From NCBI RefSeq assembly GCF_003334355.1, contig NZ_QOWP01000021.1: a DNA stretch of 64,000 nucleotides. One strand, 5' to 3'. The notes under the pieces were generated by a model. The model was not told the origin of the DNA. It did not search any database and saw nothing but the letters and a program-made list of their open reading frames with translations. How positions within the stretch are numbered: the stretch's first letter is position 1; every line of letters begins with the position of its first letter. Position numbers and translations under genes: made by a program. Positions 40,112 to 52,661 of this stretch are shown here, piece after piece. Source of the DNA: Escherichia coli. Its GTDB lineage: Bacteria > Pseudomonadota > Gammaproteobacteria > Enterobacterales > Enterobacteriaceae.

Positions 40112-40305
40112 TACCAGGAGCCGCGGCTCCTTTGCGTATCCTTTTATGTCTCCTCACCGTCTGGTCGGTGTTTTGCTGAGACTTCTAACTTCCTGTTTTT
40201 GTTGGTGTTGTCCTTACACCGTCCAATCATGATTGGCTGGCGGAGTCTGAATTTGTATGTTATATCTATGTTTTAATTGGTTATTTATTTAAGTTGTTTT
40301 TGTTT

Positions 40306-40328
40306 GTATACCTAAGCGTATACCAATA
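40306..40328. repeat. Direct repeat gtatacctaagcgtataccaata (copy 1), candidate integrase arm-type site at satellite left end
   Basis: 22/23 identical to 52529-52551. Confidence 0.6.
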
Positions 40329-40412
40329 GCGGGGTGCAATACTTATTGAACTTTAAAAAAATCACGCTAAATAGGTCTTTCTATATTCAAAAAAACTCTT
40401 TTTTCAATAAAT

Positions 40413-40490
40413 TGTTCACACTGTTCACTTTGGATTTTTACCATTCAAAATCAAGGAAATAGAAGTTAACTGTACGGTGAAGAGTGAACA
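40413..40490. repeat. Iteron cluster (TGTTCAC / GTGAACA), candidate satellite ori or crr
   Basis: tgttcac at 40413 and 40422; gtgaaca at 40484; similar to the cluster at 44799-45014. Confidence 0.45.
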
Positions 40491-40551
40491 GATAACTCTA
40501 CATTCTTGTGCCAGCAAAAATAAAACCCGGCATCAGCCGGGTTAGTTGAAA

Positions 40552-42885
40552 TTATTTGATTGTTGGCTCATCGCACTTGGGTAGCCAGTCTGCATTACTT
40601 TCCTCTTTTAAAGTGAGGTTAGTCTGCATTCCCTGATTAGTTCGCCGTTTCTCATAATGTAGCCCGTACTCCTTCAGCATGACTGGCAACCCTTTGCCAA
40701 ACATCGTAAGACTCAGGGTGTTTTTATATCCATTAGCCTCCATGTATACGAGGTAGGCATGGTAAAGGTAGGTACGTGGCTGGCGTGGGACAATATTGGC
40801 GTTCCCCATAAACATGCCGTTGGTGTCAGGTAATGCCTCAAGATAGCCACAAAAATCAAATGCTGGATCAGCATCACGCTTGATGGTGAGAGCCTCATCA
40901 GAATTCTGCTGCGACTGAAGCAATGTTCTGGCGCTCATCGGATCGCTGAAACGCTGCATGAGCTGGCGAACAATCACAGCCAGTTCTCGTGCAATTTTAT
41001 CTTTCAGCTGCGGATCGCGTTCTTCCGGTGCTATCTGCTCAGGAAAATGCAGAATAACTCTCCTGCGGGACACACCACCACTGCGATCAGTGAAGCGCAT
41101 AGGATTATTATTTACGGCCAGGATAACCGCCGGAATATGTGTTGAATAAGCATTCTGATATTTGGGGTCCACCGATACCGCATCGCCACCAGTTATAGCC
41201 TTAAGCCCGGCGCCGTCGCCGCTCCACTTCTCCTGATCAGGCAGGCGAATAAGAGAAAAACCTATCAGAGCCGCACGTTCTCGCGGGGACTCCAGCGTTT
41301 CAATGGTCGCAGAGGTGGCGTTATCCTCTCCAGCAAGCATGGTCGCAATTTCAGCCAGAATACTTTTGCCACTTCCACCAGGGCCAGTCACTTCCAGAAA
41401 GAGCTGCCAGTCATAGCGATTCGCCAGCACCATAAATAACGCCGCAAGAATAATGTCGCGTTTTTCTGGCTTGTGTCCGGCAGCCCGGTCCAGCCAGCGC
41501 CAGAATGCCGGGGCATGAGTTTCAAGCGTTTCCCCCTCTACCGGTGGCGTGAAATCGACTTCACACAGGGTACGCAGCCAGTTCTCTTTACAGTGCGGAC
41601 TAAACAGCCCTGTTCGCGTATCGAGGACGCCATTACGAAAACCGATCAGATGACGTGCCGGATTTTGCTGCTGCGGAACAATTAACTTTAATGTTTCCAC
41701 CAGTGAAGCAATTTTTCCTGAGGAAAACGGTGCACCGAGGCGCTGGAAAAGGGCTGCGACATCTCGGGCAAAATCTGACTGAGAAATCACTTTCCATGCT
41801 CCAGACTCGTAGCGGGATAAAAGCTGCCCGTTCGGATCAACCGCCAGTGCATCCCTGTAATGCTCCCGAACCCTCTGAGCTTTTTCGCTGACACTCATCG
41901 CTGTGAATTCTGCTTCACTCATTGTGTCGAAAGGACTGGCGTTATGTGGCTTCAAAGCCTCAAGAATTGCCTTCCGGGTGGATTCCTCTCCGTATTGGGT
42001 AAGCGCATCATTCCAGTCACCAAAAACCGGTGGCAGCACAATGTCACACTGACACGCTTTTGCAGCAGTTTCAGCCCTGTTCTGGCCTGAACCATTCAGA
42101 TCGCGGTCCGCTGCAATAATTAACTGATATCCCGGATACTTGTTATGGGCAACGCTGGCCAGAGAAAGAAAGTTGACCGACGAAAATGCCACCATGACGG
42201 CTTCTCCTGTCAGATGACGAATGGTAAGCGCCGTGGCGTAACCTTCCGCAATCCATATCCTTCTTACAGAACTCCCGCCCCCTTCTATCAGATGATAGGC
42301 CTCCTTAACCTGACCTCCTTTAAGAAAACACTTGCTACCATTGCCACTGATAAGCTGAATATTCACCAGTTCCCCGTCAGCGTTATAGAGCGGGACGATC
42401 AAATCACCGGGGCGGAACATCACCCCACCGGTTTTATGACCTGAAGTCAGCTCATGGCAAATATGCTCCGGGAAACCTTTATGTGTAAGATAAGTATTTC
42501 CGGCAGATTCACGCGAGGCTTGCAGTAGTCGCGCGGCAAGTGCTGCCGCCGCCTGTTTCCCGCCATCTGTATCTGCGGTTGACGTCCAGACTCCAGAAGA
42601 GGCTGAAGACAGACTATGTGTCAGTCCATGTATCCTGTCTGCTGCTTCACTGATATCCACATTCAGTACCTTGCTGACAAGCGCTAAACCGTCCCCAGCC
42701 CCGCACTGGTTGCAGAACCATGTTCCACGTCCTTCCAGATCGTCGAAGCGAAAACGATCTTTACCGGCGCAGACCGGACAAGGCTGATGGCGATTTTTCA
42801 GTATGTTCATACCCAGCGCTGGCAAAATCCGCGCCCAGTGACCGCGGGCAGCCTTCACGGCCTGACTGACTTTCATTCCTGACAT
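40552..42885 (-). CDS. P4 alpha-like primase/helicase (zinc-binding primase N-terminus)
   Basis: 777 aa from ATG 42885 (agggag RBS 9 nt upstream); N-terminal CPVCAGKDRF...CNQCGAG zinc finger; Walker A VTGPGGSGKS. Confidence 0.8.
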   Translation of the reverse strand: MSGMKVSQAVKAARGHWARILPALGMNILKNRHQPCPVCAGKDRFRFDDLEGRGTWFCNQCGAGDGLALVSKVLNVDISEAADRIHGLTHSLSSASSGVWTSTADTDGGKQAAAALAARLLQASRESAGNTYLTHKGFPEHICHELTSGHKTGGVMFRPGDLIVPLYNADGELVNIQLISGNGSKCFLKGGQVKEAYHLIEGGGSSVRRIWIAEGYATALTIRHLTGEAVMVAFSSVNFLSLASVAHNKYPGYQLIIAADRDLNGSGQNRAETAAKACQCDIVLPPVFGDWNDALTQYGEESTRKAILEALKPHNASPFDTMSEAEFTAMSVSEKAQRVREHYRDALAVDPNGQLLSRYESGAWKVISQSDFARDVAALFQRLGAPFSSGKIASLVETLKLIVPQQQNPARHLIGFRNGVLDTRTGLFSPHCKENWLRTLCEVDFTPPVEGETLETHAPAFWRWLDRAAGHKPEKRDIILAALFMVLANRYDWQLFLEVTGPGGSGKSILAEIATMLAGEDNATSATIETLESPRERAALIGFSLIRLPDQEKWSGDGAGLKAITGGDAVSVDPKYQNAYSTHIPAVILAVNNNPMRFTDRSGGVSRRRVILHFPEQIAPEERDPQLKDKIARELAVIVRQLMQRFSDPMSARTLLQSQQNSDEALTIKRDADPAFDFCGYLEALPDTNGMFMGNANIVPRQPRTYLYHAYLVYMEANGYKNTLSLTMFGKGLPVMLKEYGLHYEKRRTNQGMQTNLTLKEESNADWLPKCDEPTIK

Positions 42886-51248: not shown

Positions 51249-51277
51249 GAACTATATCTCCATGTATAACAAGTTAA

Positions 51278-52477
51278 CTAATATTGATTGCGCTCGTACA
51301 CTTTTTGGCCCCACCAATTCATAAGTCCTATTCGTTGCTCAAGGTAAGTTGAACGATTATATGCTCTGCGCACTTCATTTTTATCACTATGTGCAAGAGC
51401 AGCCTCAATTACATCTGCATTAAAACCCGCTTCATTTAATGCGGTGCTGGCAATTGAACGCAATCCATGAGCAACCAATCTACCACCAAATCCAATCCTT
51501 TTTAAAGCAGCATTTGCCGTCTGGCTATTCATTGGTTGCTTTGGGTCATTCCGACTCGGGAAAACATGTTCACGATGGGCACTGATTAGCTTCATCACAT
51601 CAAGAATCTCTAATGCCTGAGGAGATAGAGGGACTATGTGTTCCCGCTTAGCCTTCATTCGTTCAGCTGGGATAGTCCAGAGCTTTGCATCGAGATCGAG
51701 CTCAGCCCACCTAGCACCGGAAGCCTCAGAAGGACGAACTAGAGTCAGGAGTTGCCACTCAATGAGGCAGCGAGTCGGAACAGACAAATTTGACATGACG
51801 AGAGAACGCATCAGCATAGGCAATTCTTCTGGGCGCAACGTAGGCATATTTTGTTTTTTTGGCTTCTCAAAGGCCATTCCAATGCCTGATGCTGGATTGG
51901 CATCAATAAGACCAGTATTTACGGCATAAATCATTATCTCGTTAACACGCTGCACCAACCGGCGCACCGTCTCCAGCGCCCCACGAGCTTTGATCGGTTC
52001 AAGGGCTTCAACCAGTGTTCGGGCTTTGATTTGCTGGACAGGGATCTCCCCGATGGTGGGGAATACGTCTTTTTCCAGTGAACGCCATATATCTTTAGCG
52101 TAATCATGGGTAACGCTTTTGCTTTTGAGCTGGAACCAGTTAGCGGCGACCGTCGAAAAAATACTGTCCAGAGCGATTTGCTGCTGTTCCTCTGCAACTT
52201 CAGCTTGAATTTGCGGGTCGATTCCGTTGGCTAATAGGGCAAGGTAATCTGCTCTTAACCCTCGGGCATCAGCAAGAGAAAGGGCAGGAAAAGCACCAAG
52301 TCCCATCATAGTCCGCTGTTTTGTTGCTGGGCGTTGATAGCGAAAGCGCCAGAGTTTCTTGCCGCTAGTTTTCACTATCAGGAAAAGCCCATCGCCATCA
52401 TGCAGCGTTAGATCCTTCTCTAACGCTTTCGCGCGCAGAACTTCGGTGTTGGTCAGGGGGCGTGTTGTCCGTGCCAC
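51278..52477 (-). CDS. int: P4-type tyrosine integrase
   Basis: 399-aa ORF next to tmRNA 3' end; C-terminal catalytic region with HGLRSIAST and RAYNRSTY (His/Arg/Tyr). Confidence 0.85.
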   Translation of the reverse strand: MARTTRPLTNTEVLRAKALEKDLTLHDGDGLFLIVKTSGKKLWRFRYQRPATKQRTMMGLGAFPALSLADARGLRADYLALLANGIDPQIQAEVAEEQQQIALDSIFSTVAANWFQLKSKSVTHDYAKDIWRSLEKDVFPTIGEIPVQQIKARTLVEALEPIKARGALETVRRLVQRVNEIMIYAVNTGLIDANPASGIGMAFEKPKKQNMPTLRPEELPMLMRSLVMSNLSVPTRCLIEWQLLTLVRPSEASGARWAELDLDAKLWTIPAERMKAKREHIVPLSPQALEILDVMKLISAHREHVFPSRNDPKQPMNSQTANAALKRIGFGGRLVAHGLRSIASTALNEAGFNADVIEAALAHSDKNEVRRAYNRSTYLEQRIGLMNWWGQKVYERNQY

Positions 52478-52498
52478 TGTGGCCGCTCCTTCATGAAT

Positions 52499-52551
52499 TG
52501 GTATACGCTTTTAGGTATACATCCTACCGTATACCTAAACGTATACCAATA
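52499..52551. promoter_or_regulatory. Cluster of four GTATAC-containing repeats including the direct repeat gtatacctaaacgtataccaata (52529-52551), candidate integrase arm-type sites / int promoter
   Basis: GTATAC at 52501, 52515, 52529, 52541; 23-mer matches 40306-40328. Confidence 0.55.
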
Positions 52552-52661
52552 ATCATCGGATTTAGCCGGATGTTCTCGGACAACGACAAACACAAAAAAG
52601 CCCGCAGGGCTTGTGCCATGCGGGCTTTCTGTACTTCACCGGACGTATCCGGATCATTATT

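Follow-up and report, generated by a model that had tools for sequence, protein, structure and literature searches.

A probable P4-like satellite prophage with a Hachiman cargo at the ssrA site of an Escherichia coli genome

Phage satellite P4 integrates at leuX, and in its established mechanism of RNA immunity seqB pairs against seqA; the P4 hotspot was reportedly first described by Rousset et al. in 2022. CP4-57 of E. coli K-12 occupies the locus from ssrA to ypjA and is presumably larger (about 22 kb), without the late and replication genes of P4. Its annotation places intA, yfjH, alpA and yfjI at the ssrA-proximal end and ypjF/yfjZ at the distal end. P4-like satellites as a group have been screened for with seven marker families, PF00589, PF07455, PF04606, a custom Sid profile, PF05930, PF10554 and PF03288 (Moura de Sousa and Rocha 2021, PMC8628076). 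Here we analyzed a 64-kb stretch of an E. coli genome (contig NZ_QOWP01000021.1), hereafter the window, in which an element of 12.4 kb spans 40241-52661 and sits between ypjA and ssrA. The data suggest, with high confidence, that this locus holds a P4-like satellite prophage of ~12.4 kb, inserted at the ssrA 3' end and equipped with an IntA-type tyrosine integrase.

Identity and boundaries of the element

We compared the element with the published marker families and found a match for each of them. The genes concerned are listed below, with open reading frames (ORFs) measured in amino acids (aa).

51278-52477, minus strand: tyrosine integrase of the IntA (CP4-57) ssrA-specific type, 399 aa (Phage_integrase PF00589, 1.5e-30; Phage_int_M; Arm-DNA-bind_3; PRK09692, 587 bits)
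46474-46746, plus strand: delta, Ogr/Delta zinc-finger late activator, single domain, 90 aa from the RefSeq start (PF04606 Ogr_Delta, 2.6e-16)
45918-46472, plus strand: psu, polarity suppression / capsid decoration gene, 184 aa (PF07455, 5e-35, covering 1-181 of 182)
45169-45921, plus strand: sid-like capsid size determination gene, P4 Sid family, 250 aa (phrog_6165, 2e-94, the PHROG shared with P4 Sid, taken as a proxy for the authors' custom profile)
43995-44255, minus strand: AlpA/Vis regulator and excision factor, 86 aa (PF05930, 7.7e-20; phrog_2790)
43444-43995, minus strand: 183-aa ORF annotated 'Icd-like/Ash', the 'epsilon' marker (PF10554 Phage_ASH, 1.9e-29, covering 1-100 of 107; NCBIfam Icd-like at residues 132-178)
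40552-42885, minus strand: alpha primase-helicase, 777 aa (PF03288 Pox_D5, 3.5e-18; phrog_2249, 1e-223; Zn_Ribbon_Prim, Toprim_3, D5_N)

All markers lie within the 12.4 kb, fewer than ten genes apart and in the typical order (int ... psu/delta/sid, alpA, Ash, alpha). Judged from these profile matches, the element is complete by the criteria of PMC8628076 and belongs to the authors' 'Type A'. An earlier reading made from the sequence alone had already called it structurally complete, and that description stands with two caveats, the lack of a true P4 epsilon homologue and a 5-bp deletion in the distal att remnant. Its ORFs are all full length relative to the RefSeq and IMG/VR copies. Its size is also typical of the published satellites, its cargo lies exactly in their main hotspot, and a 75-aa family and cnr are found between the 'epsilon' marker and alpha, as published. 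There is no categorical difference between the element and the catalogue, of which it is one member. We therefore hold its identity as a P4-like satellite to be highly probable, and an ordinary one: the kind is already well catalogued, and RefSeq already has annotated copies that are nearly identical.

Direct alignment with P4 (NC_001609), which the sequence-only reading had proposed as a check, showed that the primase, integrase, Psu and Delta are all homologous to those of P4. The gene order of an integrated P4 that this reading had claimed is also found overall, running int, cargo, cos, late operon, ori/control region, vis, cI RNA region, cnr, alpha, crr and att, but the late genes are arranged sid-psu-delta here and sid-delta-psu in P4. 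The two elements differ in several other respects. The element measures 12.4 kb and P4 11.6 kb; Delta is a single domain of 90 aa, whereas P4 Delta has 166 aa; epsilon and orf151 are absent; crr occurs once, not twice; the 75-aa gene is extra; and the cargo consists of Hachiman and a HEPN-like gene, where P4 carries gop-beta-cII. Int is only 36% identical to P4 Int, and the element targets ssrA. With K-12 IntA of CP4-57 the integrase shares 62% identity, in keeping with the ssrA target.

The boundaries were determined from an empty site. In the window, ssrA, which encodes transfer-messenger RNA (tmRNA), lies at 52662-53024 on the minus strand (ARAGORN; Rfam 295.8 bits), with smpB beyond it, and ypjA, which encodes a YpjA/EhaD-type autotransporter of 1567 aa, lies at 35370-40073 on the plus strand. 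In strain C21-2, ypjA directly adjoins an intact ssrA. Compared with this strain, the left-flank match ends at 40240 and the right-flank match begins at 52653, and the insert is therefore ~12.4 kb long. The extent first proposed for the element, 40230-52661, was thus right within ~10 bp; every feature that had been named is present at or within ~10 bp of where it had been placed, with all the genes between ypjA and ssrA.

Because ypjA directly adjoins the element, and flanks CP4-57 in K-12, one could suppose that the locus is part of a larger composite island that includes the autotransporter. This is hardly credible. The homology breaks exactly at 40240 and 52653, and ypjA stands beside an intact ssrA with nothing between in many genomes: of 5,426 complete E. 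coli genomes, about 2,650 show a match to 80% or more of a 79-nucleotide (nt) query across the empty ypjA-ssrA junction. ypjA is therefore a chromosomal flank outside the element, and the empty-site genomes refute a composite island.

Three side observations concern the flank and the element as a whole. The ypjA gene is intact here, with a Pro/Asp/Lys-rich 12-nt tandem repeat at 39039-39146, and is a split pseudogene in strain 1-62. The spacer from ypjA to the att remnant (40083-40240) is 85% identical over 158 nt to a 'tmRNA pseudogene' feature of Escherichia phage LLS; it has no obvious ssrA similarity, and the label in phage LLS may be a mis-annotation or a picked-up host flank. Megablast of the whole element against the phage collection gave trivial matches only.

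Late genes, cos and the replication and immunity module

The Sid-like, Psu-like and Ogr/Delta zinc-finger genes and the GC-rich cos-like site that had been read from the letters were all recovered. The Sid-like protein is 23% identical to P4 Sid (BLASTP, E 3e-6), Psu is 28% identical to P4 Psu and matches its structure (PDB 3RX6, E 4.6e-12), and Delta aligns to each half of the tandem P4 Delta, with 34% and 27% identity. Two sites accompany these genes.

45079-45096, unstranded: TGT-N12-ACA dyad, ~90 bp upstream of the sid start
46820-46977, plus strand: cos region, with the putative cohesive-end core GGCGGGCGGGGCAGCGCAC at 46956-46974

The dyad matches the motif of Ogr/Delta-activated late promoters and may act as such a promoter here. 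For cos, the surrounding 200 bp aligned locally to the P4 cos junction with a score of 65, where shuffles scored 24.7 +/- 4.4. The cos region is also colinear with that of a complete P2/186-like prophage in strain 1-62; common to both are a repeated GCATGA, GGTGCATGAAAACC and AAGCGGGCAGGCG. The backbone match to sister elements stops at 46975-46978, just past cos, which is where the known P4 hotspot starts.

The next module serves replication and immunity. Alpha, whose zinc-binding N-terminus had been recognized in the sequence-only reading, shares 74% identity with the alpha of P4 between residues 3 and 775 of its 777, and the AlpA/Vis regulator is 72% identical to P4 Vis/orf88 and 42% to K-12 AlpA. 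The remaining features of this module, among them the divergent AT-rich control region described earlier, are as follows.

42900-43223, minus strand: DUF5375 protein, homologue of P4 orf106/cnr, 107 aa (69% identity; phrog_5991, PF17345)
43220-43447, minus strand: 75-aa protein, function unknown (phrog_10110, 2e-42)
43690-43777, minus strand: CI/C4-type antisense immunity RNA (Rfam RF01695 C4, 84.6 bits with a gathering score of 45, full length 1-87)
43846-43923, minus strand: isrK-like leader RNA segment with a seqA-like target of the CI RNA (Rfam RF01394, 76.7 bits)
44256-45168, unstranded: AT-rich divergent control region, GC 0.35
about 44819-45011, unstranded: ori-like iterons, upstream of sid, at the position of P4 ori
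40413-40491, unstranded: crr-like iteron cluster matching P4 type-1 repeats, with TGTTCACA, TGTTCACT, GGTGAAGA and GTGAACA

Three small coupled ORFs had been proposed upstream of alpha. Overlapping ORFs are indeed present, but the largest of them overlies an RNA immunity gene. This 183-aa ORF is homologous to the P4 'cI ORF' and overlaps the Rfam RNA matches, and only its 3' third (Icd-like, roughly 43462-43635), downstream of the RNA, is likely to be a real small gene. Between the immunity RNA region and the P4 cI region, identity is 69% at the DNA level and 68% at the protein level ('cI ORF'). Inside the CI RNA, 43696-43718 is complementary to 43892-43909 in the leader. As far as can be read from base complementarity, the CI RNA and its leader form the layout expected for P4-type RNA immunity. 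The sequence-only reading had overlooked, or merely guessed at, this RNA, the iterons, the dyad upstream of sid and the cos homology.

The marker name 'epsilon' needs a comment. P4 epsilon itself matches PF25738 (Pfam 'Derepression'), and it is the P4 'cI ORF' (8168-8584) that matches PF10554 Phage_ASH. By these profile assignments, the PF10554 'epsilon' marker of satellite screens is the ORF over the CI/C4 RNA, here and in P4, and is distinct from true epsilon. For annotators this means that the 'Icd-like' ORF of PGAP also matches Pfam 'Ash', overlies the CI immunity RNA and differs from true epsilon. The 75-aa ORF shows no similarity to P4 epsilon either. Its family is found in 61% of P4-like elements at the same position and is absent from P4 (PMC8628076).

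Iterons of the P4 type-1 kind (TGTTCACC and variants; RTGAAYA clusters) form two clusters only in the element, the ori-like and the crr-like one, and 40390-40510 aligns to the second P4 crr repeat (P4 4471-4590). Between alpA and the ori-like iterons lies an AT-rich non-coding segment of 428 bp (44379-44806), which is replaced in the sister element HD12480. It occurs in 50 of the 5,426 genomes, in some of them far from the ssrA locus, and was never annotated. We found no convincing ORF and no Rfam match in this segment, and no convincing small ORF in the 44300-45100 gap.

Cargo and sister elements

The cargo slot that had been placed next to the integrase is present. It spans 46978-51277, between cos and int, has a GC content of 0.33-0.37, and holds three genes.

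47172-48113, plus strand: hamA, Hachiman DUF1837 nuclease-like effector, 313 aa (PADLOC HamA1, 1.7e-135, full length; Pfam HamA, 4e-61)
48115-50697, plus strand: hamB, Hachiman superfamily-2 helicase, 860 aa (PADLOC HamB1, 1135 bits, full length; DEAD, Helicase_C)
50790-51248, minus strand: solitary HEPN-like gene, 152 aa, adjoining int and convergent with hamB

A promoter-like site lies upstream of hamA at 47105-47132. HamB has a visible Walker A motif (GKS) and DEAH box, and its PDB relatives include the HamB structure 8vx9. With both profiles matched over their full length, we detected no difference from type I Hachiman (HamA/HamB), known here from its genes, and by this profile evidence the adjacent, co-oriented hamA and hamB are a complete type I system. 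Hachiman has been reported as a P4-borne system, with the hotspot flanked by the integrase on one side and Psu-Delta-Sid on the other (Moura de Sousa et al. 2026, bioRxiv 10.64898/2026.02.27.708500).

No model in PADLOC, Pfam or NCBIfam matched the 152-aa protein, whose family comprises about 700 homologues with an invariant RxRN.LFH motif. The Rx4-6H motif of HEPN proteins is found as R104-N-N-L-F-H109, invariant in 18 diverse homologues, and the predicted fold may be HEPN-like. Since the gene lies immediately downstream of hamB, convergent with it, and within E. coli occurs only in the 20 genomes with this cargo, we considered whether it might be a third component of this Hachiman system. 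This is improbable. The PADLOC Hachiman models have no such component, and homologues in Pantoea, Rheinheimera and another E. coli prophage lie in other islands with no HamA/HamB nearby. Homologues recur beside integrases or defence genes, for example next to a resolvase gene in a Pantoea variable island, and in the other E. coli between icd and a prophage integrase. Because the homologues occupy other islands and prophage cargo positions without Hachiman, the 152-aa gene was treated as independent cargo. It could work on its own as an anti-phage or abortive-infection gene, or it could modulate Hachiman, a suggestion we make only tentatively. For annotation, it indicates that cargo slots of this kind carry a small HEPN-like family that lacks annotation.

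Some homologous P4-like segment was found in 3,898 of the 5,426 genomes, and the whole element, at 99.5% identity or more, in 18, some copies bearing insertion sequence (IS) insertions; IMG/VR holds further copies. The hosts of the 18 copies include dog, turkey, pig, human and mouse, and soil isolates are also among them. Comparison with the ssrA-linked islands of other E. coli, also proposed in the sequence-only reading, yielded both empty sites and sister elements, the latter with a backbone 91-96% identical and other cargo in the same slot. In one sister the slot carries DUF262, an MAE_28990-type HEPN-like nuclease and a Dcm methyltransferase (8568-11428 of the extracted locus), and in another a 546-aa dsDNA-nuclease-domain protein and a 709-aa DEAD/DEAH helicase (8549-12315 of the extracted locus). 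From these alignments, different cargo on one backbone is the cargo swapping described for P4-like satellites.

One relevant arrangement was found in strain 1-62 (NZ_CM131229.1; 18396-18730 and 1-38001 of two extracted loci), where ssrA and the satellite int are separated by a complete P2/186-like prophage of ~35 kb. The internal junction between prophage and satellite holds a 47-nt ssrA 3' fragment. From this layout, strain 1-62 plausibly has a helper in tandem with the satellite at one att locus. Separately, this prophage bears a TIR-domain gene amid those for the tail, and its portal gene is followed by a 3-gene cargo.

Attachment sites, excision and mobility

The attachment region of the element contains the following sites.

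52662-52676, minus strand: ssrA-proximal att core, within the ssrA 3' end, TGGTGGAGCTGGCGG
52598-52612, minus strand: terminator-like hairpin and T-run downstream of ssrA, in element DNA
52498-52551, unstranded: P-arm cluster of four GGTATAC/GTATACC arm-type repeats in inverted pairs, read from the sequence
40306-40328, plus strand: P' arm-type integrase-binding repeat GTATACCTAAGCGTATACCAATA, a 22/23 direct repeat of 52529-52551
40233-40243, unstranded: distal att remnant TTG-----GCTGGCGG, an ssrA 3'-end copy without GTGGA

The integrase gene had been described as abutting the tmRNA 3' end. Its position was right, but a 184-bp arm, with the arm-type repeats and the terminator-like hairpin, lies between the two. 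The hairpin is inside the element because empty-site homology begins only at 52653. By analogy with the annotated attP arm repeats of P4, the repeats at 40306-40328 and 52498-52551 are probably Int arm sites. The motif GTATACCTAAGCGTATACCAATA is also found in SCU-172, another P4-like element at ssrA. With CP4-57 the element shares the attachment locus, ssrA to ypjA, an AlpA-family regulator, and, at the distal junction, the P' arm sequence up to about 40282.

The att repeats expected at the two ends were found in part: there is a duplication, but its halves are not identical. No perfect direct repeat of the ssrA 3' end was present within 3 mismatches, and the remnant was recognized via the empty-site comparison only. 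The empty attB reads ...CCAATCATGA-TTGGTGGAGCTGGCGG-GAGTTGAACCC, the ssrA-proximal junction ...GGATCATTAT-TTGGTGGAGCTGGCGG-GAGTTGAA, and the distal junction ...CCAATCATGA-TTG-----GCTGGCGG-AGTCTGAA. The crossover core common to both junctions is GCTGGCGG, with its distal copy at 40236-40243. The same 5-bp gap is found at the distal junction of other ssrA elements (among them another P4-like element and an O157 island), whereas in K-12 CP4-57 the gap is 1 bp, a 1-nt deletion of the deltaT357 type.

The distal remnant lacks 5 bp, and excision at the GCTGGCGG core would therefore leave ssrA without UCCAC, ending CGCCAGC-----CAA, whereas the intact end reads ...CGCCAGCTCCACCA. CP4-57 excision is known to damage the ssrA 3' end (PMC10107115). 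A damage class CGCCAGC-----CA (Stm27X, Eco48X, Oi108) is among the classes of Williams 2003 tabulated in the same paper (PMC10107115 Table 1), and such mutations placed in E. coli tmRNA abolish trans-translation (PMC10107115). The element shares with this class the CGCCAGC-----CAA distal remnant on the tmRNA strand; here, the carrier is an apparently complete P4-like satellite. The element supplies the ssrA 3' end and the DNA downstream of it, together with a terminator-like hairpin, and its excision is predicted to inactivate tmRNA, as for CP4-57.

The predicted scar was found, perfectly matched, in one of the 5,426 genomes, strain WB61 (NZ_CP020025.1; 690-770 of the extracted locus), whose ssrA is annotated at 359 nt. 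Going by its sequence, the WB61 ssrA should be non-functional. This suggests that excision at this core happens in nature but rarely persists.

From these parts we propose the following scheme. The resident element would express its cargo, protecting the host and itself against other phages, while the CI/C4-type antisense RNA and its leader target would give immunity by transcription termination. On lytic growth of a P2/186-like helper, the element would excise under the control of AlpA/Vis, replicate, and be packaged. Replication would be driven by the alpha primase-helicase and the ori-like and crr-like iterons. Mobilisation would proceed via Delta/Ogr cross-activation: Delta and the TGT-N12-ACA site upstream of sid-psu-delta would turn P2-family helper capsids to small, Sid-directed heads, and the P2-family cos region would let the helper terminase package the element. 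In a satellite that excises during helper lysis, the scar is irrelevant to the dying donor. After spontaneous curing, the surviving cell would lose tmRNA function.

Several results weigh against a satellite that is complete and still mobile. The att halves differ, with the distal remnant short of 5 bp, and the WB61 scar could stem from another element at ssrA whose distal remnant is the same. The cos core has a 1-nt deletion and several substitutions relative to the P2/P4/186 19-mer, and no match to the P2/P4 cohesive-end 19-mer was found within 3 mismatches in the window. Without a near-exact 19-mer, the cos call therefore rests on regional homology; strain 1-62's P2-like prophage, too, lacks the P2/P4 19-mer at up to 3 mismatches. 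When the cos region was compared with the phage collection by BLAST, nothing matched. An IMG/VR scan for the element's own 19-mer gave 7 loci and no helper among them: 4 are copies of the same element, 1 resembles, in ORF layout only, the int-cargo-cos end of another satellite, and the remaining 2 lie within long ORFs and are probably chance matches. Neither tblastn nor BLASTP gave a counterpart of true P4 epsilon, the helper-derepression protein, in the element. A sigma-70 promoter scan of the control region was not above the shuffled expectation, and PLE and PLL were not located. Finally, the 64-kb window contains no helper prophage.

The att deletion, the atypical cos core, the missing epsilon and the missing helper, together with an excision scar in only one of ~2,650 empty-type junctions, would fit an element that is P4-derived but now immobile, a domesticated defence island, like CP4-57, kept for Hachiman. 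We regard this as rather unlikely. The core ORFs are all full length and every marker family is represented. The same atypical cos core and distal remnant are kept in sister elements with other cargos, and this conservation therefore favours a functional lineage variant over decay. The near-identical copies are spread over 18 genomes of varied hosts, and one copy adjoins a P2/186-like prophage that is complete and whose cos region matches. A published analysis of P4-like elements also reports that pseudogenes are rare and cargo turnover rapid, which counts against an immobile island. On balance, we lean towards a P4-like satellite that can currently be mobilised.

The 5-bp-deleted distal att could in addition, though this is doubtful, be a retention device, because a cell curing itself of the satellite would lose tmRNA function. 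Taken together, the locus would be a textbook P4-like satellite that serves as a mobile vehicle for Hachiman at ssrA, a much-used site, and its importance lies mainly in correct annotation.

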